IMG/VR virus record: IMGVR_UViG_3300010347_002584
Location: 1,443-65,442 of that record
Strand: one strand, 5' to 3'
Origin: a virus
Lineage: Duplodnaviria > Caudoviricetes
DNA length: 64,000 nt
Part shown: one piece after another, positions 36,725 through 50,240 of the stretch
Position numbering within the stretch: position 1 is the stretch's first letter
How the letters are laid out: each line of letters begins with the position of its first letter
Position numbers and translations under genes: made by a program
The notes under the pieces: model-generated
The model's input: only the letters and a program-made list of their open reading frames with translations
Databases searched by the model: none
What the model was told of the DNA's origin: nothing

Positions 36725-39700
36725 CTATCTACGAATTCCAATCACAGTAATATACGCGTTCAACAATTTCACTGATTCTGGAACAGCTGAAATTTCTTCA
36801 GGTTCTTTCGTAAAATCAGTTTCCATCATCGTTCTAATATACGCATTTTTCAAATCAATACAATCACTTTTTGTTGTTAGAAACTCTGATAAATTTATCG
36901 GAGCATCGTGAGCAATCATACATGCAGTTTCCATTTCACCCATTCTCTGACCACCTTTATTTTTTCTTCCCCCAAGAGGTTGCAGAGTCCTTCTAGCATA
37001 AGAGGCAATTCCTCTTGCTGCTAATCTATTCTCGGCTATATGAACCATTCTAAAGAAATACATATACCCTACTGCTACTTCTTGTTGTAAAGTGGTCTTT
37101 GAAATAGGATCATAAATTGGAACCTTATATGGAGTTTTTGTATAATCCATTGCATTCTTTACCATATCATCTGTAACTGATTCGAATGGTGCCTGAATAA
37201 GACATAGATTATTTACAAAATTCTCTGTTACCTCTCCTAACTGCTCCTTAAATTGCTTAGAATACCATTTATTCTCTGTTCTATCAATAATGTCAATATA
37301 GTCTAGTAGATACTTCCTTAATGTTCTCTGACTCTTTCCATCTTTTATCATCTGTAATAGTTTTGTTTTCAAGTCTTCAAGAGATTTGGATAAATGTAAC
37401 TCAAACAACTGCCCAACATTCATCCTAGAGATAATACTGAGAGGATTGATACAGATATCAACATGTCGACCATCTTCTAATTGTGGCATACTTTCATGTG
37501 GAATAATCTCTGTAACAACTCCTTTATTCCCATGCCTATTGGCAATTTTATCTCCTGGTTTAATTGGTCTTGCATACATCCCATATAATTCTACATAGAC
37601 ACCATTTATTTCTTCACCTTTAATTTTATATTTTCCTACATTAGAAAATTTATCTAAATTATGTTGTCTAATTAATTGTGCTGCTACATCTTTTGGGCAA
37701 TTCTTTGTTATTACATCTTGGATTTTCTTCTGTTCTTTAATTTGACTTGAAATTTTTTCTTCAATAAACGCATTCCATTCTGGAATTCCAGTATGCCATT
37801 TATTAGCATATATATTTACATCTGTAATTAAGATTTGTCTTTTCGCATTTAGTTTAATAGGTTCTTCAAAAATTGTGCAGAAGTCAATCGGGCCTTCTGG
37901 AATCCCCTTCATAATTGCATAGGGTTCTCCAGTTCCAATTTTCTCCGGTTTTGATAAATTAACAGTAGGGAGTGGTTTATACTTATTATTTTCAAGACTA
38001 AGAAGAACTTTATCCGGAGGGACTACAAAAGAAAGATCTGTATAATGGATTGAAGTAAATAATTTTTCTTTAACCACTCTATCAGAAAGAACAATTCCAT
38101 CTTCATAATTCTTTCCATAATAAATCATTACACCAGTTAATAAGTTTTTTCCAATATTTATTTTTCCATCTGTGCAGAAATTGCTTTCTGCGAGTATATC
38201 TCCAGCTTTGAACTTATCTCCAACTTTAACATACACCTTAGTTATATCCATATTATCAACATATATTTTTCTTAGTGATATGTTAAAGATATCTATTTCT
38301 TTGTTTGAATATACTACAACTAAGTAATGATTATCAAGGAATATTACTTCTCCATCTTTCTTGGCTCTTTTTACAAATTGTGTATAATCAGTATATAATC
38401 CTTCACACCCTGATTGAATCATTGGTTTATCAAAACTTGTCAACATTATTGCCTGTCTCATCTGAGATGAAGACATTTGTAATCTAGTCTGGTCATCGTG
38501 TTCCAAAAATGGAACTAGACTAACTGGAATAGAAATTGGTGCTTGATCTAGTATATTATCAGTAAACATTAAGTTATTATCTAAATCAACATTTGGAAGA
38601 AGATTTTGAAGAATTCCGCAATTATCTCTATCAGGGGTATCTACTGAGCACACCCTTCCAAACATACTTGGGCAAACATCCCTTAAATATTCTGGGACAT
38701 TTTCCCTATTGAAACCACCAGGACCTAAAAGGCTCGCTCTAGAAAGTTTTGTAAGTTCGTCTACTGGGTTAATTGAAAAGTCAAATTGAACAATGTCAGA
38801 AACATTGCACTCAGATAAAATTGCATTTGAGTTTATGTTAAATTTTGGTTGTTTAGATGTTCTGTTTGACATACACAAGTCAAAAACTGCTTTCGCAACT
38901 TTTCCTAAGATAAGATACTCAAAGCATCTAATTCTCTTATTTTGGTAGTTTGTATCGTCAATACCATCTGTACTAATAGCATATACAATCTCATCTATAA
39001 GAGTATTTGTTTTAAATAATTTTTTAGACATGATATCTACTTTTGGAATAAGGTCTATACAATATAATAAATCTTCTCCTTTTGATCTTGCGTCATATGT
39101 AGAAAATTTTGATCCTACTTCTTTAATGTATTCTTCCCTCTTCTCTCCATCATAGCCATCTGCCCAATCTTTTAAATCAAACATTAAGAAATCAATAAGT
39201 CTTGACTTATTAGTCAAAACAATTGGTTGCATTGTGGAAAGACCGTACATATCATTAAGTTTTTCAAAACCATAGTATGCTAACATTACCAACGAAAGAG
39301 GAATCTTTTTTCCAAGAATTGTCAGATGAATATAAGGAAAATCCTTCTCTTTGGAAATAATCATATTTGCTACATTTGTTCGTAACTTTATTGTTTCACC
39401 TCTTGTTACAATTGGAATATCAAAAATCTGAAATTGTGGTATCTTCTTTCTTCCACTAATAACAATATAGTTATCATCAACAAGTTTTGGAATATACATA
39501 CTCAAATCAATTTCAGATGTTCCTTTTTGTAACTTTATAACTAGATTCTTTTTTAGACTTTTTTCTAATTCTCCAGCTGAAGTTCTAGAATCTTTTATCC
39601 CAAATTCATTTATAGAAAATCCAAGTTCTTCAGCAGGTTTTAAGATTTCTCTAATATTGGATTCTAATTGGTCATATTCCTGTTTTCGTATAATGAATAT

Positions 39701-39745
39701 ATTTTTTTCTTTATTCACCTTAAATTTAGGATTTACGATTTCCAA
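36725..39745 (-). CDS. rpoB: multi-subunit RNA polymerase beta subunit (phage)
   Basis: GPGG..RDV, PFLEHDD..R..M, YEDGIVLS, GDKIANRHGNKGVV, SRMNVGQ, GGQRMGEME. Confidence 0.95.
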   Translation of the reverse strand: MEIVNPKFKVNKEKNIFIIRKQEYDQLESNIREILKPAEELGFSINEFGIKDSRTSAGELEKSLKKNLVIKLQKGTSEIDLSMYIPKLVDDNYIVISGRKKIPQFQIFDIPIVTRGETIKLRTNVANMIISKEKDFPYIHLTILGKKIPLSLVMLAYYGFEKLNDMYGLSTMQPIVLTNKSRLIDFLMFDLKDWADGYDGEKREEYIKEVGSKFSTYDARSKGEDLLYCIDLIPKVDIMSKKLFKTNTLIDEIVYAISTDGIDDTNYQNKRIRCFEYLILGKVAKAVFDLCMSNRTSKQPKFNINSNAILSECNVSDIVQFDFSINPVDELTKLSRASLLGPGGFNRENVPEYLRDVCPSMFGRVCSVDTPDRDNCGILQNLLPNVDLDNNLMFTDNILDQAPISIPVSLVPFLEHDDQTRLQMSSSQMRQAIMLTSFDKPMIQSGCEGLYTDYTQFVKRAKKDGEVIFLDNHYLVVVYSNKEIDIFNISLRKIYVDNMDITKVYVKVGDKFKAGDILAESNFCTDGKINIGKNLLTGVMIYYGKNYEDGIVLSDRVVKEKLFTSIHYTDLSFVVPPDKVLLSLENNKYKPLPTVNLSKPEKIGTGEPYAIMKGIPEGPIDFCTIFEEPIKLNAKRQILITDVNIYANKWHTGIPEWNAFIEEKISSQIKEQKKIQDVITKNCPKDVAAQLIRQHNLDKFSNVGKYKIKGEEINGVYVELYGMYARPIKPGDKIANRHGNKGVVTEIIPHESMPQLEDGRHVDICINPLSIISRMNVGQLFELHLSKSLEDLKTKLLQMIKDGKSQRTLRKYLLDYIDIIDRTENKWYSKQFKEQLGEVTENFVNNLCLIQAPFESVTDDMVKNAMDYTKTPYKVPIYDPISKTTLQQEVAVGYMYFFRMVHIAENRLAARGIASYARRTLQPLGGRKNKGGQRMGEMETACMIAHDAPINLSEFLTTKSDCIDLKNAYIRTMMETDFTKEPEEISAVPESVKLLNAYITVIGIRR

Positions 39746-39759
39746 TTGAAATCCTCCTT

Positions 39760-39990
39760 TTAGTTTGGAGTTGTTTCCTCCATTGAATTTACTATCTGGC
39801 TAAACATTTTTACCAGAGTTGAATCTGATCGTGATGAAAGGAACCGATCGCTCATTCGAAGATATTGGCTATTTAATCTTATAAACTTAATTAAAATTCT
39901 TCTTTGGTGTGATCGTTGTTTTATCATACTCTCTAGTTGATCAGCCTGGTATTTCACAAACTCCATATTATTTAGTATTTTTTCTTTCAT
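39760..39990 (-). CDS. small hypothetical protein between RNAP subunits
   Basis: 76 aa, coupled to the rpoC stop. Confidence 0.55.
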   Translation of the reverse strand: MKEKILNNMEFVKYQADQLESMIKQRSHQRRILIKFIRLNSQYLRMSDRFLSSRSDSTLVKMFSQIVNSMEETTPN

Positions 39991-42686
39991 AATTTCTCAC
40001 CACATAGTATTTTATCCATAATTCCACTATATAAACCTCTATGAACTATACCCTTTAAAATATGTCTCTTTGGATTAGAAAATCCAAGTCCTAATAACCA
40101 ACTTTCTTTGCTTGGAACAGATTGAACACTATGATAATCAGGTACAATTTTATCTCTATTCTCTAATAGTCTCCATTTGGAATTTCCTTTCCACATCATT
40201 TGAGAAACAACACATTCAAAATGAACATGATATATATCTCTATTTGAGTTATATACCCTAAATAATTCAGAAATTAATTCTTTATATTGTTTCTCTTTTT
40301 TCAGATGAAGAAGCTTACTAGCACTATCTAAATCACTTACAATATCTAGTTGCTTCATTTGTTCATCTTTATTCATTTTGGCAACACCAGATGTATGGAA
40401 AGTTCTCAAAATCAACTGAGTGTTACACTCCCCTAGAGATTGTGCAGCAATTACACCAATAAACTTACTATGCATATTTCTAAAAGATTCTCCATAGCAA
40501 GTATGACAGATATCTTCACTCTTACAGAAAATTGGACTTCTCACTTGAATGGTTTTTCCTACAAAAGCTTCACAATTTTCTGGATCAATTAAAACTAGTT
40601 TATTATAGCCTGGAATCTTACAATACTTATTGACTAACATTTTTGCTTTCTTCAAACTATCAACATAAACATCTAAACAATCTGTAGTTCCACAATCATT
40701 TAAAGTTTCATGAAGTTGAAGATTTGCACAAGTAAATATAAGTTTTCTTGATAAATATCCAGATGCTCCAGTATTCAACGAAGCATCCAATAATCCCTTT
40801 CTACAACCGTAAGTGGACAGGAAAAACTCATGCTGGGTCAACCCATCTAGTAAACTATGTTTAATTGGCGTAGCTAAAATCTGTCCCCTAAAATTTGAGA
40901 TAAAACCTCTAGTCATAACTATCTGTCTTACTTGTTCCCAACTACCTCTTGCACCAGAAGTTATAAGATATGAGTAACTAAAATTATTTTTCAAAATATT
41001 TTCTAATTCATTACTAGAAACTTTTTCCAACTGTGAAATAGTATCATCTCCTTCATAAAGAGAATTTCGTATAGATTTTGAATTTTCAATTCTACATGCA
41101 TCCAATGATAAAGTCGTTCCTAATAAAGTTGAATATTTAAATCCTTTCCACTTAATTTCATCTAACACATTTTTTGTAACTTCTTCAGAATACTTATTTT
41201 TTATATCATTTAAGATTGCTATCAATTCTTTCTTTCCAACAACATAATCAATAATAGGATAATCTTCTGGTAATGCTTCATTAAATAATCGTAATCCTTC
41301 AGTAATTTCTTTTCCTTTAAATTCAACTTTATTTTCAAGATTTGAAATTCTATGAGATGTTAAAGCATAAATTCCAAGAACAATATCTTGACTAGGAACT
41401 GTCGTTAAACTTTCATTTGCTGGATTTGAGAGGTTTTTTGTAGATAAGAACTTTTTCTTTACTTCTTCTTTTGCTTCATCAGATACAGGAATATATACTG
41501 CCATCTGATCTCCATCAAAATCTGCATTAAATCCAGAGCAGACTAATGGATGAATCTTAATAACATTATCCATTGACATCTTAATTTTGAATCCGATCAT
41601 ACTTAATCTGTGTAATGATGGTTGCCGATTAAGAAGACAAAACTCGTTTTCAATGGCTTCTTCTGCAATTCTATAAAGACTTGGAATTTTAAAGTCAATA
41701 CAATTATCTATAAAATCGACAGCATCATTTAGAAGTTTAAACTTTCCAAGCTCAATTAAAATCTTTGATATCTTAAGCTTAAATAGTTCTAAAATCATTA
41801 CATAAGGAAGACAACATTCATCCAGAGAAAGAGTAGGATCTGGAATAATAACAGCTCTTCCAGAAAAGTCAATTCTCTTTCCTAGAATATTTCCTCTAAT
41901 CAATCCTTCTTTTTTAGATAGTTTCTCAATTATGTGTTCATAAAGTTCATTGACATCTTTTTGTATTTGTTTAAAATAGGTATAAAATATTCTCTTATCC
42001 TTCGAGATACTAAAACTTGTATTTCGCATTGCTTCTTTCTTTGTTAGTATTTGTACATAATATCTATTTATCTTATCTATAACCTGATTATTTCTTTCAA
42101 TTCCTTTAGCAGCAGGTCTCAAATCCGGGGGTAGCACTATTACATTATTCAGAAATAATAAATGTAAATTATCCTTGATTATTTTCCAATTGGTATTTCC
42201 ATGTTTAATATTATCATTTGTAAGACCACTAACCAATTCATGAATAGCTTCTAACATTTCCCATCTTTTTGCTTTTTCTGGGACATTTTTATCCTCTACA
42301 CATACATAGTCGTCACCATCCTTGTATAAACTAACATCATCTTTTTTCATTAAAGTATCTATCATACTTTTAACATTGTTTCCACCAATGCTAATAAGTA
42401 AATCATAAAAAATAGGATTTACTACTGGAATTGGAAGAACTATTTTCGCAAATCGTTGTCTTCTAACATTATTATTAACTATATCTACTTTACATGTTTT
42501 ACACTTTCCTCCAGATTTAGAAGATCCATAATAAATTCCACATTGGCATGTGTAGTTTTTCAATGGTCCAAATATCTGTTCAGAAAATAAACCTTCCGGG
42601 TGGAATTTTCTTTTAGTTACTATATTTGGAGATGTTACTTCCTCTAAATTTTCACAAAACTTATTCTGATCTAATAATGTGGGCAT
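39987..42686 (-). CDS. rpoC: multi-subunit RNA polymerase beta' subunit (phage)
   Basis: IFGP..Y.CQCG, GKRIDFSGR, NRQPSLH, catalytic NADFDGDQMAV, SGARG, GYLSRKL, TQLILRTFH. Confidence 0.95.
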   Translation of the reverse strand: MPTLLDQNKFCENLEEVTSPNIVTKRKFHPEGLFSEQIFGPLKNYTCQCGIYYGSSKSGGKCKTCKVDIVNNNVRRQRFAKIVLPIPVVNPIFYDLLISIGGNNVKSMIDTLMKKDDVSLYKDGDDYVCVEDKNVPEKAKRWEMLEAIHELVSGLTNDNIKHGNTNWKIIKDNLHLLFLNNVIVLPPDLRPAAKGIERNNQVIDKINRYYVQILTKKEAMRNTSFSISKDKRIFYTYFKQIQKDVNELYEHIIEKLSKKEGLIRGNILGKRIDFSGRAVIIPDPTLSLDECCLPYVMILELFKLKISKILIELGKFKLLNDAVDFIDNCIDFKIPSLYRIAEEAIENEFCLLNRQPSLHRLSMIGFKIKMSMDNVIKIHPLVCSGFNADFDGDQMAVYIPVSDEAKEEVKKKFLSTKNLSNPANESLTTVPSQDIVLGIYALTSHRISNLENKVEFKGKEITEGLRLFNEALPEDYPIIDYVVGKKELIAILNDIKNKYSEEVTKNVLDEIKWKGFKYSTLLGTTLSLDACRIENSKSIRNSLYEGDDTISQLEKVSSNELENILKNNFSYSYLITSGARGSWEQVRQIVMTRGFISNFRGQILATPIKHSLLDGLTQHEFFLSTYGCRKGLLDASLNTGASGYLSRKLIFTCANLQLHETLNDCGTTDCLDVYVDSLKKAKMLVNKYCKIPGYNKLVLIDPENCEAFVGKTIQVRSPIFCKSEDICHTCYGESFRNMHSKFIGVIAAQSLGECNTQLILRTFHTSGVAKMNKDEQMKQLDIVSDLDSASKLLHLKKEKQYKELISELFRVYNSNRDIYHVHFECVVSQMMWKGNSKWRLLENRDKIVPDYHSVQSVPSKESWLLGLGFSNPKRHILKGIVHRGLYSGIMDKILCGEKL

Positions 42687-42907: not shown

Positions 42908-43177
42908 TTATTTGATCTCCTCTATTTCAATAATAATATCCTTTGGCTTTTCTTCTGATTTCTTTCTTTCAATTGCATTAACGATTTTCTTATGATTAAA
43001 ATCAAAAACAATATGAGTTAGATTTTTAACAGCTTTTTCTATTGGTTCTTTTAAATCAGTTACTAGACCACTTAACGTATCCAAGATCTGATTTCTATGA
43101 ATATTAGACATTAAAAACCTCCTATCAAAATTTTTTATCATAGGAGAAAGCAAACCAAGCAGAAAAATAACAATCAT
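42908..43177 (-). CDS. small hypothetical protein
   Basis: Likely starts at MSNIHRN behind GGAGG. Confidence 0.5.
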   Translation of the reverse strand: MIVIFLLGLLSPMIKNFDRRFLMSNIHRNQILDTLSGLVTDLKEPIEKAVKNLTHIVFDFNHKKIVNAIERKKSEEKPKDIIIEIEEIK

Positions 43178-43466
43178 TCATATTATATGTAGATAATAAT
43201 TTATCTAAACTCCTAAGAGATTCCTTAGAAATTTTTAAGTTATCTTTGAATGTTTTAGACAAACAAAACTCATTTGTTTCTGGATCACTATTTGGATGCT
43301 TTCCATTAATAACCACTTTTTCAACATTTGACTCATCATCTAAATATATAGAATATCCATTGATTATAAAATCGGTTTTTATCGAAGTAATTTTCCTGAC
43401 TGAGTCCTTATATATTACTCTCGCAGGAACTACAATCTTTTTAAATTTTAGTACTCTTTTTTTCAT
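43125..43466 (-). CDS. putative E2 (UBC-fold) protein
   Basis: HPN-x8-C (HPNSDPETNEFCL) followed by LDKLLSTYNMND, resembling the UBC post-catalytic helix. Directly downstream of a ThiF-like gene. Confidence 0.5.
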   Translation of the reverse strand: MKKRVLKFKKIVVPARVIYKDSVRKITSIKTDFIINGYSIYLDDESNVEKVVINGKHPNSDPETNEFCLSKTFKDNLKISKESLRSLDKLLSTYNMNDCYFSAWFAFSYDKKF

Positions 43467-43474
43467 CTTTATTC

Positions 43475-44359
43475 CTATGCAGAACCATCATCCGGAATTA
43501 ACTCAATGACTGGACCCTGTGGTGTTATCGGTGAAAATGAAACGATATAGTAATTACTTTGGAATCTCAATTGAATTAATGGAATTAAAGTTATCATCAA
43601 GTCATTTACTTCAGATAATCTATTTGGAGGAATAACTTCTTTGACTGTTGGTCTATCCTTTCCACCAACATATACAGTTATGGGTGAGTTTTTATTTGCA
43701 GAAATTATTGGTTGTGAATATTCTACTAAATTCAATAATTTATGATCCCCATTACAATAATCATATATTATATCTGGTATGTTTTCTACTCGATTGAGTT
43801 TATCTTCTACTTTTTTATCTAAATAATCTAACTCAAATTCTTGAACTAGGTTTTTATCAATTAACTTTTGAATATTATTACTATTTATTAAATTTGATAC
43901 AATTGCAGCTGCATATAACAGATGATGTTTATGAATTATAGACGAGTAGGAACCTTCCCTATTCTTTTCATATATAATATTATTTCTACAATCTACAATT
44001 AATTTTCTTGAAGAAATATACGTTCGAATCGAAGGAGTATTTTCGATCTTATCATATCGAAAATCTCTACAGTCAATAATCAAATCAAAAATTTGATGTA
44101 TTTCTGTTGAGTTAAATCTAATTGCTATTCTATCAACAACAATTTTGTTGATATTCTGTTTTATTTTATCATATATAGCATCTATTTTCAATCTTCCAAT
44201 GTCATTTTCATCATATAGACTTTTTCCTACATTATTTATAGTTACCGTATCATAGTCTATTAACGTTAATTTTTTTAAGTTAGTATTTGTATCTACAAGA
44301 GTTCGGGCCAAAAAACTTCCAAATGATCCTAATCCGACTAAACAAATACTACTATACAA
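43475..44359 (-). CDS. ThiF/E1-like adenylation protein (divergent, second copy)
   Basis: ICLVGLGSFGS, LTLIDYDTV...N, K.DA, DLIIDC.D. Lacks NxxRQ and an obvious catalytic Cys. Confidence 0.75.
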   Translation of the reverse strand: MYSSICLVGLGSFGSFLARTLVDTNTNLKKLTLIDYDTVTINNVGKSLYDENDIGRLKIDAIYDKIKQNINKIVVDRIAIRFNSTEIHQIFDLIIDCRDFRYDKIENTPSIRTYISSRKLIVDCRNNIIYEKNREGSYSSIIHKHHLLYAAAIVSNLINSNNIQKLIDKNLVQEFELDYLDKKVEDKLNRVENIPDIIYDYCNGDHKLLNLVEYSQPIISANKNSPITVYVGGKDRPTVKEVIPPNRLSEVNDLMITLIPLIQLRFQSNYYIVSFSPITPQGPVIELIPDDGSA

Positions 44360-44408: not shown

Positions 44409-44654
44409 TCAAGTTCCCTCCATAATAGAAACTATTTGTTCCATACATGAATTTACAAACTTTATTTCCTCAATAGTCATTCTTCCAGATGCTTTATATG
44501 ATGATGTTCCATCATTTTTTTCAAACCTTCTGGAAAATTGTAGTTTTGGTTTTCCCCCATCATAGGATAATATTGATACTATAAAAAAATTTCCATTTCC
44601 CTGAGGCATTTCAAATACTTTTAGTACTTTATCTCTATCTTGATTATATGCCAT
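44409..44654 (-). CDS. PC4/YdbC-like ssDNA-binding protein
   Basis: VSILSYDGGKPKLQFSRRF..DG...SGRMTIEE pattern. Confidence 0.6.
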   Translation of the reverse strand: MAYNQDRDKVLKVFEMPQGNGNFFIVSILSYDGGKPKLQFSRRFEKNDGTSSYKASGRMTIEEIKFVNSCMEQIVSIMEGT

Positions 44655-44673
44655 ACTATTATCTCCTTGGTAA

Positions 44674-44777
44674 TAGTGGGTGGGTTACAATAGGTTACTC
44701 CTTGAAAACTAGTCGGTGTAAGGGGAAACCCTTTGTGGATCTAGCATCAAGTTCCTCCCTACGTCACCCACCCACTA
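44674..44777. ncRNA. 104-nt rod-like structured intergenic RNA candidate
   Basis: 12-bp perfect outer stem TAGTGGGTGGGT/ACCCACCCACTA with nested helices TAGG/CCTA, CTTGA/TCAAG, CTAG/CTAG and AAGGG-GAAA-CCCTT. Confidence 0.5.
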
Positions 44778-44783
44778 CTTAAT

Positions 44784-45272
44784 CTACCTTACTTTTGGAA
44801 TCTTTTCTGCAATTCTCTTTTCTTTCTCAGTTGGTTCAGGTCTGAACTCTGATTTAAATTTAAATTGCTTGGAAGTTTCTTCAAGGGGATAGAATCTTGG
44901 AACATAAACATTCTTACTTCCTTCAGGAATAAAAAATGTTTCGTTTATTCTGGCAAGTTCATCTTCAGTCATTTCTTTTTTAATTTTAAATAAAACAAAT
45001 GAAGGAAATCTCTGTCTCTCAGCATTTATTTCATCAGAGTTACCTTTCTTCATTACTGCTTTAACAGCTCTACCATGAGCAATATATCTTGCAACTGACT
45101 TCTTATGCATATCGAGAAGAGATCTAACAGCAATTCCTCTTGAGACAATAGACAAGTCACTCTTATCAACAAGAATACATGCTGTATAGATATTTCCAAT
45201 CAAATCATCTGCTTCATAGTAATACTTTGGAAACAGGTTTCCAATGTCAATCTGTTTGCCATCTTCCATCAC
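44784..45272 (-). CDS. phage hypothetical protein
   Basis: SRGIAVRS..D.H.K..AR.IA.GRA pattern seen in phage proteins. Function unknown. Confidence 0.6.
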   Translation of the reverse strand: MMEDGKQIDIGNLFPKYYYEADDLIGNIYTACILVDKSDLSIVSRGIAVRSLLDMHKKSVARYIAHGRAVKAVMKKGNSDEINAERQRFPSFVLFKIKKEMTEDELARINETFFIPEGSKNVYVPRFYPLEETSKQFKFKSEFRPEPTEKEKRIAEKIPKVR

Positions 45273-45337: not shown

Positions 45338-45787
45338 TTAGCCTTTCCGGCCAGCAGGTTTTAGGAACTCAAGGTTATCTCCCTCTTTGAGACAATATGA
45401 ATCTTCCACCTCTTTACCATTAACAACTCCTCTGGACATACGATCAACATTAAGAACCTCCCTGAGGAACTCAGCAACTGCACCAACAGTCTTTCCAACT
45501 ACAGGGAAATTTCCGTATGAAGCACCACAAGATACTAGAATTGTAGTTGTGGTCTTGTTCCCTTCTGAAGAAGAAGGATTTGTAACCTTACTATGCAATA
45601 CAGACCTCATCTCATCAAGGTTCTGACTTCCAGTTTTATTCCCAGAAACAGTATCTTGTCTGTAGTATGATAGGAGGGCATCAACAATGATATCCTTCCT
45701 CTTCTTGCTCATACCAACAATACCAAATCGAGTACAAATGCTACGAAGTTCATCTACAGTTTTCGCTTCAAGTTCTGCTCTAGTCAT
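45338..45787 (-). CDS. ubiquitin-like (beta-grasp, Prok_Ub/ThiS-type) protein with N-terminal HeH/Rho_N-like domain
   Basis: C-terminal ...VNGKEV..SY.LKEGDNLEFLKPAGRKG-stop. N-terminal LEAKTVDELRSIC...GMSKKRKD.IV..LL. Confidence 0.85.
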   Translation of the reverse strand: MTRAELEAKTVDELRSICTRFGIVGMSKKRKDIIVDALLSYYRQDTVSGNKTGSQNLDEMRSVLHSKVTNPSSSEGNKTTTTILVSCGASYGNFPVVGKTVGAVAEFLREVLNVDRMSRGVVNGKEVEDSYCLKEGDNLEFLKPAGRKG

Positions 45788-45797
45788 TTCAATCTCC

Positions 45798-46484
45798 TTA
45801 CTTTTTGTTTTTTGGTTCTCTAGATGTAGAATGTGCTCTCATAGTTTTCATATCAAAATAGATTTCCGAATTTGTGAGGTCCATATTTTGTATATTATAG
45901 AAGGACCAACACATAATTGTTGCAACCCCTAAGTTCGTAAAGAATAATTGGGGTTCAGAGTTTTGTAACTCTTCACAACTCATTTCATTTGGCAATTTGT
46001 CTTCTGGATTTTCGATTTCTGGATGATAATCTGTCAGACTTGGTGTTAGATTTTCACCTCCTTTTCGGACATAGATTTGAACATTTCCATCTGTAAGATC
46101 ATTTCCTCCAGAGATAATAGTAATATCTTTCAGATTTTTAGCATAATCAGAAACAAGTTTCCTTGTTTTATGATTATCTACTGCTAGAAAAACAGTATCT
46201 CCTTCACTAATTATCTTATCTACAGTAGTTTCATCAATAAAATATGGAATATTCCTGAAATTAATATTCTCATATCTCGCTTTTAACTCATTTGTCTTAA
46301 CCACTGCCTTATTACCCAAAGAGAAGAAATCTTGACGTTCAAAATTTTTCTCTTCGTAATAATCACCATCAACTAGTGTAATTGTTGTTTCCTGATCTTT
46401 TTTAAAATTTTTATATCTAGAAATTTTATCAGATAAGATTGAACCAATTCCTCCAAGACCAATAATAACAATTCGTTCCATCAA
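45798..46484 (-). CDS. E1-like activating enzyme (ThiF family)
   Basis: VIIGLGGIGS, LVDGD..EEKNFERQ, AVDN..TR, candidate catalytic Cys in SCEE. Confidence 0.9.
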   Translation of the reverse strand: MMERIVIIGLGGIGSILSDKISRYKNFKKDQETTITLVDGDYYEEKNFERQDFFSLGNKAVVKTNELKARYENINFRNIPYFIDETTVDKIISEGDTVFLAVDNHKTRKLVSDYAKNLKDITIISGGNDLTDGNVQIYVRKGGENLTPSLTDYHPEIENPEDKLPNEMSCEELQNSEPQLFFTNLGVATIMCWSFYNIQNMDLTNSEIYFDMKTMRAHSTSREPKNKK

Positions 46485-46493
46485 ATCCTCCCA

Positions 46494-47639
46494 TCACTCC
46501 CAGTATTTATATAAACCACAGCTATCATAAAGTTCAGTATTTTCTAGTTCAGAATATTTTTTATTTTCACTTCCATCTTTGTAATTATCTGCAACTGGTT
46601 CTAGAGCTTTTGTAACATCATTTTTGGTTAATTTATATTCTCGGAAAATACAATCCTTACATGGATTGTATTCCACATATCTTTTTGAGTCGAAATCCAG
46701 TTCACCTTGTCTATTCTTCTCATTTGTTCCTTCCCACCAATTCTCCCCATGTCCATAGTGATATCTTCCATACGAACGGTTTGGAATTTCACTGATAGAA
46801 CCAATAGTTTCACCACCAGAACGTTCTTCTGTAATCTCAATTAGTTTCTTCTGTTCATTATCCCATACCCATCTTGTATACTTATAACTAAGTGTCTTCT
46901 TCTTTACAAACTGCATCCAATTTCTATCAAACTCTTTATCCTTATCTGAAACACCATTGATAGTATAACCAATATGTGTTTTTAAATCTTTGTTATACTG
47001 TTTTTCTCCGTTTACAATTGTAAATGATGGTTTAAATTGGTTGGGATTATAGTATGAAAATTCTACCAAATCAAGATTTTCAATATAGTCAAGTGGATTA
47101 ACCATAAATCTTGATCCATTTGTAACAATTGAAGCAGAAATATCCATTACATCATGGTTCATTTTTCCAAGAGTAATGTGCAGTCCATCAAAATTCTTTT
47201 CATCGTCACTATCTGTTCCTGAGTGGAAAGCACTCATACTACCGTGACTATGAATAGAACACATAAGAACGTGGTTCTTAAATGTTTTATCTTTAACATA
47301 ATCAAGACTTGCACCACTAACTTCTTGCTTTGGAATATAAGTTTTATATTTTTTTGTTTCTAGATTATAATATAAAAGAGCTACACATTCCGAATAGTAC
47401 TCTTTATATACCTCCTTAAAGAAACTATAAATCTTAGCAAACACAGAACCAGGGATCTTTTCAATATTTAATTTTGCATATGGTTTTAGATCCCCAAGAA
47501 TAGAGATTTTATCCACTTTAGACAAGCTTTCTATTAGTCCAACTTTTTTCTTCAAAAGGATTCCATCCTTTGCAATTAAATAGCAGATATCATCCTTTGG
47601 AAGCTCTTCACCTTCGTTATATACATATACATTAAACAT
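46494..47639 (-). CDS. JAB/MPN+ metallopeptidase (Ubl processing / deconjugase)
   Basis: ECVALL, then HSHGSMSAFHSGTDSDDE (E..HSH..S..D). GLHITLG. Confidence 0.9.
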   Translation of the reverse strand: MFNVYVYNEGEELPKDDICYLIAKDGILLKKKVGLIESLSKVDKISILGDLKPYAKLNIEKIPGSVFAKIYSFFKEVYKEYYSECVALLYYNLETKKYKTYIPKQEVSGASLDYVKDKTFKNHVLMCSIHSHGSMSAFHSGTDSDDEKNFDGLHITLGKMNHDVMDISASIVTNGSRFMVNPLDYIENLDLVEFSYYNPNQFKPSFTIVNGEKQYNKDLKTHIGYTINGVSDKDKEFDRNWMQFVKKKTLSYKYTRWVWDNEQKKLIEITEERSGGETIGSISEIPNRSYGRYHYGHGENWWEGTNEKNRQGELDFDSKRYVEYNPCKDCIFREYKLTKNDVTKALEPVADNYKDGSENKKYSELENTELYDSCGLYKYWE

Positions 47640-47651
47640 TAGTTAATAACC

Positions 47652-50240
47652 TCACTTCTCATATAAAGAAAATTGGGAAATGGATTTAATATATCCCCCA
47701 AGAAGGTTCGGAAATGCACGAACAAATCTTTCTTCTGCTTTTCTTCTTTCAGAATATCTTGGTCTACAAAATCCATATCTTCTTAGTCCATACCTTGAGT
47801 AACTTTCTGGTTTATTGTGAACATTAATAGTATTTCTAATTGTGTACGAATTTTTCTCCATTGGATAAGCAATATTTAAAAAGTATGAGTAATTTTTACT
47901 AGAAAAGTCGGAAGGAGTATTTTTATAGAAATAAATAACATCTGTCTTTTGCTGATTATCTCTAATAATATAGAAATCGCCAAGTTGGTCTTTTAATTCA
48001 GTTGGATCAACCGCTGGAGATAATTTATTCAAAAGACGGTTATACATTCTGTGTCTTTTTGGATAAATTTCAAATTGATCCATCTCATCTGCCCAAAGTG
48101 TAAGACCATTTGAGCAAAGAACTAAAGGTGGATGTGAAATTGTATCTGTAATTAGACCAACAATCTTATTTACATCTTTTTTCAAGAAGTATGGAATTCT
48201 TGGAGTCTTTGCTACAATTATATTTCCATTCTCAAGATTTTTAACGTTAAGATTAATTTTTCTTATTGATCCAACATATACCATATTTTGTTTGAAATCT
48301 ATATACTTATCCTTCCTTAAAACTCCAGTTTCAGGATCAATCGTTAAAATAAATAAGTATTGTTCATCATAGACAAAAGAGTGAATCTTTCGTGGAGTTA
48401 CCATATCATATATATTTGTCCAATCTGCTACAACAACATCATCCCCAACATTAAATTCTATATCTGAGTCATATGATGGAATTAATAACTTGTTTCCATC
48501 AGATTTAATAAGATCCTGAATAGCCAGATCTTTATTATATGATGCAGCTTCTCCACTATTGTATTTTCTTTCATCCATAATGACACAATCCTTAACAACA
48601 AAGACATCCTTATTGTTAAGTTGATATAATTTATTTAAAATTCTAAAGGTTCTTGTGGCGGGTTCCTTCAAATCTTCAGTTTTGATTACTGTATACTCTA
48701 GTGCCTCTTCATTCTCATGATATCCTTGACAATAAACTCTCCACCTTCTAGTAGTCTGTCCAGCTGGAATATATTTTTTATTTTCATTAAATGTTAATAT
48801 AATATCTCCCTCTGTGGTCACTTCATGTCCAGTATAAAGGATATGACTAAAATACTTAAACATATCATTTGTATTTCTATAAATAATATATTCTTCATCT
48901 TTCTTGATATCAATTGAGGAATATCTTGGTTTAATTTCACCCATCTTTCTGGCATCAATTTTATCTAAAAGATAGTAATCAGATGGATCACCTTTTAACA
49001 TTACTTCAAAATTTCCATCTCTACCAAGTCTTATTTTCTCAATTGTTTTTATCTTTTTAAATGGATAATTAACAATAATTGAGTCTCCAGCAGATACTTC
49101 AGAACCATCCGCTAACTTAATTTTATCAACGAGAGATTCTTTTATCTTAAATGCACTAGCAGGAATCTTTTGGACATTGACCATTTTAGAACTACCATCA
49201 GTATCTTCTAAGTTAAGATATGAAACATGACCACTAGCCTGATCTAAAATAATATCATTAATATAAAATGTTTTTTCATCTATTGTAATTTGATCCCCAA
49301 TAGAAAGAGGCTTGTTTTTCAAAAAACATGAATCTATAGATCCAATTCTAGATGAAAACATTTGTCCATTAATTATTATAGGCGTTCGGGTTAGTATCTT
49401 TTTTAAATTTGACAGAATTCTGGATGAATCAACGAAAGGCTCACCATAGTGTTGAAAGAATAAATCACATGCTTTTTTCAAATGGTTCTCGTACTTAAGA
49501 TATTTAACATTAAATATAAACATTGGATCAACTGCTGTATGGTATGCCCACGAAACAAAATCCTTAAACTCTGGAACTTGTTCCGCATACTCAGCATAAT
49601 TAGTAATATAATCTGTATTGAACGAGTTTGCCCAAAATGCAGAAATAACTGAGTTTACTCCTTCAGATAATCCATCATAGTCATTTTTTATATCACCCAA
49701 ACAAACTGTTTCGTGACCTCCAATATTTGGAAGATTTGCTTTTAAAAGATAATCATATTCTGAACTTATTGGTGATAACCTATAAAAGACCTTCATTCTC
49801 ATGAATCTATTTAATTGGTTAAACAGTAATACATATATAACATAGGGAAAAGATAATGTAATTTTATATGGTCTGGTTTTTCCAATGAGATCATCTACTT
49901 TCACTACTTTGTCTTTACCTGTAATCTTAAAATTCTCTACACATGAACTAAAATCGAAATCAACATTAACTGTTCTTACAGCAGGAGGGTCTTCAATGAC
50001 AATTAGTTTATATCCATTATCATTTATATCTACATATCTACAATTTCTTGGAAGAACCACACCTTTTACAGAAAATGTAGTCAGGAGTCTCTTATAAAAC
50101 TCTTCAGTTTTTACCAAGTTAGTTCGTTTATATGAAAGATACTCATTCTTAGTATTTACAACCGATGCAACCTTTGTGACATATTCTGGACCAATATATA
50201 TTTCTTGAAAGTTATCATTCACATCTTCGCTGAAGCTCAT
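47652..50240 (-). CDS. prokaryotic E2 family D-like domain fused to a long unknown C-terminal region
   Basis: LSFPYVIY, ANLPNIGGHETVCLG (PN..C), FWANSFNTD. About 600 further residues with SH3/KOW-like GD repeats. Confidence 0.75.
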   Translation of the reverse strand: MSFSEDVNDNFQEIYIGPEYVTKVASVVNTKNEYLSYKRTNLVKTEEFYKRLLTTFSVKGVVLPRNCRYVDINDNGYKLIVIEDPPAVRTVNVDFDFSSCVENFKITGKDKVVKVDDLIGKTRPYKITLSFPYVIYVLLFNQLNRFMRMKVFYRLSPISSEYDYLLKANLPNIGGHETVCLGDIKNDYDGLSEGVNSVISAFWANSFNTDYITNYAEYAEQVPEFKDFVSWAYHTAVDPMFIFNVKYLKYENHLKKACDLFFQHYGEPFVDSSRILSNLKKILTRTPIIINGQMFSSRIGSIDSCFLKNKPLSIGDQITIDEKTFYINDIILDQASGHVSYLNLEDTDGSSKMVNVQKIPASAFKIKESLVDKIKLADGSEVSAGDSIIVNYPFKKIKTIEKIRLGRDGNFEVMLKGDPSDYYLLDKIDARKMGEIKPRYSSIDIKKDEEYIIYRNTNDMFKYFSHILYTGHEVTTEGDIILTFNENKKYIPAGQTTRRWRVYCQGYHENEEALEYTVIKTEDLKEPATRTFRILNKLYQLNNKDVFVVKDCVIMDERKYNSGEAASYNKDLAIQDLIKSDGNKLLIPSYDSDIEFNVGDDVVVADWTNIYDMVTPRKIHSFVYDEQYLFILTIDPETGVLRKDKYIDFKQNMVYVGSIRKINLNVKNLENGNIIVAKTPRIPYFLKKDVNKIVGLITDTISHPPLVLCSNGLTLWADEMDQFEIYPKRHRMYNRLLNKLSPAVDPTELKDQLGDFYIIRDNQQKTDVIYFYKNTPSDFSSKNYSYFLNIAYPMEKNSYTIRNTINVHNKPESYSRYGLRRYGFCRPRYSERRKAEERFVRAFPNLLGGYIKSISQFSLYEK

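Follow-up and report, generated by a model that had tools for sequence, protein, structure and literature searches.

A second E1-like gene coupled to a predicted mini-E2 beside the RNA polymerase genes of a huge-phage lineage

The E1b/mini-E2 gene pair and its coupling

The present analysis concerns two adjacent genes, termed E1b and mini-E2, on the minus strand of a 64-kb stretch of viral DNA (hereafter the window, to which all coordinates refer), i.e. positions 1,443-65,442 of the 65.4-kb IMG/VR record IMGVR_UViG_3300010347_002584 (estimated record completeness ~21%). The E1b gene (43475..44359) has a TTG start and encodes a protein of 294 amino acids (aa), the second ThiF/E1-like protein of its gene block. 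The mini-E2 gene (43125..43466) starts with ATG and encodes a protein of 113 aa with an HPN...Cys motif and a predicted fold of the ubiquitin-conjugating (UBC) type. The spacer between the TAG stop codon of E1b and the ATG of mini-E2 (43467..43474, minus strand) is 8 nt long and reads gaataaag in the junction sequence. A first-pass annotation of this DNA had described a ThiF-like gene followed after an 8-nt gap by a 113-aa HPN-Cys open reading frame (ORF) upstream of the RNA polymerase (RNAP) genes, and had proposed that this second E1 is divergent. Both ORFs and the junction were confirmed; the E1b product passed the Pfam ThiF model (E 3.4e-13; 49.7 bits for a cut-off of 28.1, residues 3-100), and its likeness to the other, canonical E1 of the block (E1a) is faint (BLASTP E 0.086).

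The comparative analysis covered 61 IMG/VR loci with E1b homologues, located on contigs of up to 312 kb and scored by hidden Markov models of the window genes. Downstream DNA is present for 60 of these loci, and in every one of them mini-E2 stands directly after E1b and is followed by the genes for RNAP beta' and beta. Wherever the other flank is present, the upstream order is a giant E2_D-like protein, a JAB peptidase, E1a and a ubiquitin-like protein (Ubl). The window shows the same order, entirely on the minus strand (E2_D-like giant protein, JAB, E1a, Ubl, E1b, mini-E2, RNAP beta', RNAP beta), and the E1b/mini-E2 pair is part of a block that is kept as core genes beside the RNAP genes in a lineage of huge phages. 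The start of the longest mini-E2 ORF is within 8 nt of the E1b stop, or overlaps it, in 58 of the 60 loci; 38 loci have an overlap, of either 4 nt or 1 nt, and such a stop-start overlap suggests translational coupling of the two genes. The pairing is likewise kept in seven further metagenome contexts, in which mini-E2 was followed down to E ~1e-5.

A tblastn search with mini-E2 and E1b found no real relative among 50,697 GenBank phage records, and a scan of 185,579 species genomes produced a single match, on a 10-kb contig of a metagenome-assembled genome. The window DNA itself is present in wastewater, activated-sludge and digester metagenomes of many studies, and the habitats of the lineage are wastewater, sludge, digesters and sediments. 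The E1b/mini-E2 junction is bridged by RNA-library contigs identical to the window (43181-43527 and 43349-43507; two metatranscriptome runs on wastewater, both from a single study), a weak hint that the pair is expressed.

Family, active-site motif and predicted fold of the mini-E2

The mini-E2 product carries HPNSDPETNEFCL and LDKLLSTYNMND, in which H57-P58-N59 is followed after eight residues by C68 (codons 43263..43298, minus strand). Family conservation and profile alignment mark this segment as the predicted active-site flap with its catalytic Cys. A word-based search retrieved only four close relatives (one of them on a 61-kb contig with identical gene order), and an exhaustive profile search extended the family to 162 representatives at E<=1e-3, including 72 at E<=1e-10. 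In a 142-sequence alignment (~30% identity) no sequence departs from H57 or C68, and at least 90% of the sequences keep P14, I26, P58 and N59. The pattern HPN-x5-9-C is present in 139 of 153 family proteins, 124 of them with the x8 spacing; it also occurs in the mini-E2 of 58 of the 60 IMG/VR loci. As to the remaining 14 proteins, four have an insertion between HPN and Cys, nine vary at Pro, Asn or (in one case) His and keep the Cys, and one is devoid of it. The latter, P0049, is the sole member seen in the full set of 153 that has Asp in place of C68, and the His-less variant (P0126) has Asn where the others have the His. A family of 162 members with a near-invariant HPN...C argues that the small ORF is a real gene and that its motif did not arise by chance.

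A second motif, Y-N-(L/M)-(D/N)-x-C-Y-F-x-P-W, is also conserved, although Ser or Ala frequently takes the place of its Cys (C99). We considered and rejected a zinc site made of H57, C60, C68 and C99, as residue 60 is often not Cys and C99 is a Cys in just ~102 of 153 family proteins. Residue 60, directly after HPN (43287-43289), is Ser in the window protein, Cys in many members and Ala in many others. None of the models in the Pfam, NCBIfam, PHROG and PADLOC libraries scanned names the mini-E2. The Pfam model UQ_con is touched by two of the 142 aligned members (best E 0.0033), and the family profile aligns the HPN...C of the mini-E2 onto the HPN...C of Pex4 (5nkz, E 0.22) and of UBE2U (1yrv, E 0.84), albeit with weak E-values. 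Among the unusual members is a tandem double mini-E2 of 237 aa (P0132; L012:3546-4259), whose first copy has HPN with Val for the Cys and whose second copy has HPN...C, an arrangement that recalls the pairs of Ubc13 with a ubiquitin E2 variant (UEV). Mini-E2 ORFs of 166-228 aa occur in some IMG/VR loci (L028, L038, L075).

Structure prediction with AlphaFold2 from only five close homologues gave an unusable model (predicted local distance difference test, pLDDT, of 38), and the run with the 142-sequence alignment was used instead (pLDDT 93.2, predicted template-modelling (TM) score 0.84). The model consists of five beta-strands (the first of them 4-12 and 16-19), the HPN segment, C68, a short helix (71-76), a further helix (81-91) and two short strands. 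When it was compared with the PDB by Foldseek, the 24 best matches were all UBC E2s (Ubc13, E2-25K, Ubc9 and UbcH5 among them), with a probability of at most 0.91, E ~0.1 and a TM score of ~0.45. Independently of Foldseek, VIA-align against 48,161 cluster representatives gave UBC or UEV proteins as all 22 best matches, headed by UBE2U (1yrv; Z 5.6, root-mean-square deviation 3.6 A over 93 residues), with bacterial E2s placed lower (Bub 9eav_D, Z 4.0; CdnG-E2 8hsb_B, Z 3.0). A realignment of the 852 best Foldseek chains likewise yielded E2s in 50 of 50 listed entries, and the best match in BFVD is a mimivirus E2 (TM 0.51).

The beta-meander, the flap and the crossover helix alpha2 of the UBC fold are all present in the model, the top matches having Z 5.6-4.0 and deviations of ~3.7 A over ~90 residues. 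Helix alpha1 is missing; an extra beta-strand takes its place, and the aligned part of the E2 chains begins only around residue 26-38. Helices alpha3 and alpha4 are missing as well: the chain is just 113 residues long, and E2s of 150 residues are covered no further than residue 133-143 or so, the overall span of E2 residues covered being ~28 to ~135. As judged from the model, the protein would be a core E2 composed of the beta-meander, the HPN flap, Cys68 and alpha2, without alpha1, alpha3 and alpha4. Our assignment of the UBC fold relies on the fact that all the top ranks go to a single family that accounts for very little of the library, and on the independent evidence of motif and sequence; taken together, these predictions make it very probable that the mini-E2 is a UBC-type E2.

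E1b, its conserved tail and the neighbouring genes

The first 105 residues of E1b (44045..44359, minus strand) constitute its Rossmann adenylation half, and its profile matches in the PDB are MoeB (1.4e-12), MccB (1.2e-11), ThiF, UBA5, Cap2 (7tsx) and Uba1. Across 61 E1b sequences the glycines of the GxGxxG motif (G9, G11 and G14) as well as D35, D37, N43, K58 and D96-C97-R98-D99 are invariant or nearly so. The set of nucleotide- and Mg-binding residues of the ThiF/E1 family (ribose Asp, phosphate Lys, Mg Asp) is thereby present in E1b. Invariant residues specific to E1b are D123, R125, G136 and Y138.

The most unusual feature of E1b, which the first-pass annotation had not noticed, is its C-terminal tail. 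In the window protein it reads D-D-G-S-A (43478..43492, minus strand), with the stop codon directly after it, and the family consensus is ...E-L-I-P-E-T-G-A-A. A Gly at position -3 is found in 60 of the 61 sequences and a terminal Ala also in 60, and an extension beyond it in none. Such an exact, conserved, small-residue free C-terminus has the look of the carboxylates that are activated in Ubls, in MoaD/ThiS and in the CD-NTases (cGAS/DncV-like nucleotidyltransferases) of the antiphage systems that signal by cyclic oligonucleotides (CBASS), which makes it a candidate donor. Of the proteins encoded between the Ubl gene and the RNAP genes, E1b is the only one whose tail is conserved. The small ORFs between mini-E2 and RNAP beta' were considered as possible tags and rejected (their charged tails are unconserved, and they are absent in 8 of 60 loci). 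A split arrangement (a short E1b plus a separate tag) was not found either. The one homologue that looks only 190 aa long (P0181) is an assembly chimera, namely a 1-kb JGI contig ending in an inverted copy of itself (L019:863-1009), and P0182 is cut at a contig end. In an Atlas comparison, residues 205-294 of E1b gave no feature match; their structural matches to N-domains of type II secretion system ATPases (TM ~0.5) came from a poor model and are uninformative. A complex prediction for E1b and mini-E2 scored 0.00, which gives no verdict and was counted neither for nor against binding.

Downstream of the pair lies a small gene (42908..43111, minus strand). The longest ORF there (89 aa, 42908-43177) overlaps the 3' end of mini-E2, and translation probably begins at the ATG at 43111, which stands 8 nt behind the ribosome-binding site TAGGAGG; the product would then have 67 aa. 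The conserved downstream neighbours follow on the same strand (36725..42686) as RNAP beta' (39987-42686), a 76-aa ORF and RNAP beta (36725-39745). The window as a whole has a G+C content of ~30% and, from 11.6 kb onward, nearly all of its genes on the minus strand.

The upstream half of the block begins with a protein of 862 aa (47652..50240, minus strand), for whose Prok-E2_D-like N-terminus the evidence is weak. It has no Pfam match in an ordinary scan, and in a search restricted to the record PF14460 appears below the cut-off with E 0.0014 at residues ~159-219 (49584-49766). The nearest Atlas clusters of its residues 1-260 are viral proteins with PF14460 in 19-33% of their members (score 0.95), and a homologue has a faint PF14460 match. 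It is followed by a JAB/JAMM peptidase of 381 aa (46494..47639, minus strand; Prok-JAB 2.7e-5), which also matches TIGR03735, PRTRC_A (2.9e-12), and by E1a, a canonical ThiF-type E1 of 228 aa (45798..46484, minus strand; Pfam ThiF 3.8e-19). Both ThiF proteins match PRTRC_ThiF, and all of these PRTRC matches are below the cut-offs. Among 53 E1a sequences the GxGxxG, N-x-x-R-Q and D-N motifs and C170 are invariant; Cys170, located in M-S-C-E-E, is a candidate catalytic cysteine of the crossover loop that has no equivalent invariant Cys in E1b. The fourth gene encodes the Ubl of 149 aa (45338..45787, minus strand), composed of a Rho_N/HeH head and a ThiS/MoaD-like body (both assigned by weak Pfam matches) and ending in AGRKG. 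The tail AG(R/K)KG is conserved across most loci. In 12 related loci the Ubl homologue (within L020-L080) has one extra Cys after the tail (KGC); this residue would have to be removed, and the JAB peptidase is the presumed enzyme. The Ubl gene has its 3' end ~980 nt upstream of the E1b gene, and the genes in between (44409-45272) are not core genes, p162 (162 aa) being present in about half of the related loci and p81 (81 aa) in about a third. To judge from sequence comparison, the presence of two E2 types in the block is plausible, and its upstream half (E2_D-like protein, JAB, E1a, Ubl) looks like a self-sufficient PRTRC-like set. E1a does not obviously need a second E1 or E2, as it is canonical and has its own E2_D-like partner and Ubl in this set.

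Proposed mechanism, alternatives and relation to known systems

Considering the genes, their strict coupling, the conservation of motifs and tail and the predicted fold, we regard it as reasonably probable that E1b and mini-E2 constitute a second module for conjugation in which Cys68 is the predicted thioester site, and the phages of this lineage probably tag proteins themselves. As for the donor, we infer from the sequence comparison that the tail of E1b may be the tag; it is the most likely of the candidates, although we put it forward tentatively. E1b would adenylate a C-terminal carboxylate, most likely that of its own tail (in cis or from one subunit of a dimer to the other) or, alternatively, the KG tail of the 149-aa Ubl. 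The acyl group would then be accepted as a thioester by Cys68 of the mini-E2, Asn59 would stabilize the oxyanion, and the group would move to an amine on the target, the modification being trimmed or reversed by the JAB peptidase. In the most far-reaching form of this reading, which we offer tentatively, E1b may be a self-activating "E1-tag" fusion that passes its own invariant Ala carboxylate (in cis or within a dimer) to Cys68, so that either the whole of E1b or a released C-terminal domain would be ligated to phage or host proteins at the start of the RNAP operon.

Several points weigh against this interpretation. The structural scores of the mini-E2 are modest (Z 5.6, TM ~0.45, Foldseek E ~0.1), and Z-scores below 8 are common for unrelated folds. 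No member of the family reaches the cut-off of Pfam UQ_con (PF00179), for which the window protein has no match. The matches of E1b to E1s in the PDB are confined to residues 4-105, and its C-terminal half matches neither PDB chains nor Pfam families nor the Ubl of the cassette (hhalign probability 0.3%); the sequence comparisons yielded no sign of a beta-grasp domain in it. The N-x-x-R-Q motif is altered to N-L-[K/R]-N-S (N-V-G-K-S in the window), a basic residue being still present near this site, and E1b has no invariant Cys outside D-C-R-D (C124 is found in 51 of 61 sequences). The RNA-library contigs may derive from contaminating DNA and, finally, it would be unusual for an enzyme of 294 aa to be conjugated as a whole.

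The first-pass annotation had envisaged a branched cascade of two E1s, two E2 types and one Ubl. Its components have largely stood the comparison: the second E1 is there, the 113-aa protein is E2-like (its predicted fold resembles UBC E2s and the homologues keep HPN and Cys, so that neither of the two refuting outcomes named in that annotation was observed), and the other E2 type is probable on the weak Prok-E2_D evidence. The branched action on a single Ubl is less well supported. The sole further conserved C-terminus of small residues in the block is the tail of E1b, which makes a parallel module with its own donor at least as likely. In such a branched arrangement the E1b/mini-E2 pair and E1a with the E2_D-like protein would share the 149-aa Ubl and provide two routes to different targets. 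This would agree with the constant co-occurrence of both modules in a fixed order, with the single recognizable beta-grasp Ubl gene and with the strong conservation of its AG(R/K)KG tail. On the other hand, it leaves the near-invariant, unextended tail of E1b unexplained, and this is why we disfavour a simple branch. Every canonical E1 residue, including the invariant Cys170, is already present in E1a, and to our knowledge there is no precedent for two active E1s acting on one Ubl. We consider such sharing of the Ubl rather unlikely.

A linear cascade with a heterodimeric E1 appears more doubtful still. In this arrangement E1b would be the non-adenylating partner of E1a, comparable to the inactive adenylation domain in Uba1, BilD, NAE1 or SAE1, and its C-terminal domain would be a dock resembling the ubiquitin-fold domain that recruits the mini-E2. 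The loss of the canonical R-Q motif and of the second-half ThiF sequence in E1b would fit such a role, as would the lack of helix alpha1 in the mini-E2, owing to which its docking must differ. However, the residues that bind the nucleotide are as a rule lost from inactive adenylation domains, and in E1b GxGxxG, D35, K58 and D96/D99 are invariant; as the nucleotide-binding residues are intact, a dead partner is disfavoured, and a docking domain would have no need of an exact, conserved free C-terminus. A non-conjugating His/Cys protein is the least probable of the possibilities, to which we give little credence. The mini-E2 would then be a thiol peptidase or deamidase, a relay that passes on persulfide or sulfur from a thiocarboxylate activated by ThiF, or an adaptor of the UEV kind. 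Enzymes of the ThiF/MoeB type with tailed carriers do serve sulfur transfer too, the best PDB sequence matches of E1b are MoeB, MccB and ThiF, and the E2 structural scores are only modest. Yet all top structural matches of the mini-E2 are UBC E2s, true E2s have just this HPN-x8-C spacing and, after it, a helix with an N-x-x-D-type loop, and the JAB peptidase and the Ubl are always present in the block; in the particular case of a UEV-like adaptor, the invariant Cys speaks against it.

If active, the conjugation module that we favour would place the mini-E2 among the smallest E2s, which would help to define the minimal catalytic core and would reveal how E1 recognition works in an E2 that lacks alpha1. 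Protein tagging would then also be a tool of the phages themselves, for takeover or counter-defence. Prokaryotic Ubl conjugation has so far been studied as an anti-phage defence of the host (CBASS Cap2/3, Bil, Bub), and here huge phages keep two modules. With its tailed E1, the pair hints at a donor architecture of a new type. If the self-tagging interpretation is true, this would be an offensive phage system in which the activating enzyme is itself the modifier, parallel to the PRTRC-like Ubl system.

Comparison with the known systems brings out both the likeness and the differences. Canonical UBC E2s (PF00179; 1yrv, 5nkz, Ubc13, UbcH5) have in common with the mini-E2 the beta-meander, the HPN flap, the Cys and the crossover helix, and its x8 spacing fits the x7-8 of E2s. 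In contrast to them, the mini-E2 has only 113 aa, a strand in place of alpha1 (the helix that is the usual docking site for E1 and E3 in canonical E2s) and no alpha3/alpha4, and it is sub-cut-off, phage-encoded and paired with a ThiF protein. MccB/MccA and MoeB/MoaD, the best matches of the Rossmann half of E1b, adenylate a free C-terminal carboxylate, and the MoaD tail (a hydrophobic strand followed by P-P-V-T-G-G) resembles ...ELIPETGAA of E1b. However, their substrates are separate peptides or proteins, they have no E2, and E1b lacks the second-half ThiF sequence. Type II CBASS likewise contains an E1/E2 pair with a JAB peptidase (Cap3), and the C-terminus activated there may belong to an enzyme rather than to a dedicated Ubl. 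E1b matches the E1 domains of CBASS Cap2 (PADLOC E1-E2 models down to 1e-11, by their E1 domain only; PDB 7tsx). Yet Cap2 is an E2-E1 fusion, whereas the phage has separate genes, E1 first and then an E2 with a eukaryote-type HPN, beside RNAP genes; the substrate in CBASS is the CD-NTase, whereas in the phage module the tail would belong to the E1. The phage block showed neither a CD-NTase nor an effector.

With PRTRC (TIGR03735 PRTRC_A, TIGR03736 PRTRC_ThiF at 1.3e-9, Prok-E2_D) the upstream half of the block shares sub-cut-off matches, whereas the E1b/mini-E2 pair has no counterpart in PRTRC by the models tested here. Full-text searches of the literature brought up no description of a phage E1/mini-E2 pair beside RNAP genes; Iyer et al. 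2006 (PMC1779556) and the Bub paper (PMC11601596) treat related host systems and the Ubl/JAB pairs of phage tails, not an E1b/mini-E2 module. The Bil (BilABCD) and Bub (BubABCD/E) operons are bacterial ubiquitination-like systems of host defence (PMC10557695, PMC11601596), which have separate Ubl, E2, JAB and E1 genes just as the phage block does. In Bub the Ubl is located immediately N-terminal to the E2 and is freed by a peptidase, Ser oxyesters are formed, and both E1 and E2 are devoid of a catalytic Cys (PMC11601596). This position of the Ubl resembles that of the E1b tail directly upstream of the mini-E2, although a conserved G-x-A tail like that of E1b is absent from the E1s of both Bil and Bub. 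Overall, the phage module would combine the chemistry of a UBC E2 with that of a ThiF-type E1; its architecture is minimal and phage-borne, and its E1 is tailed.

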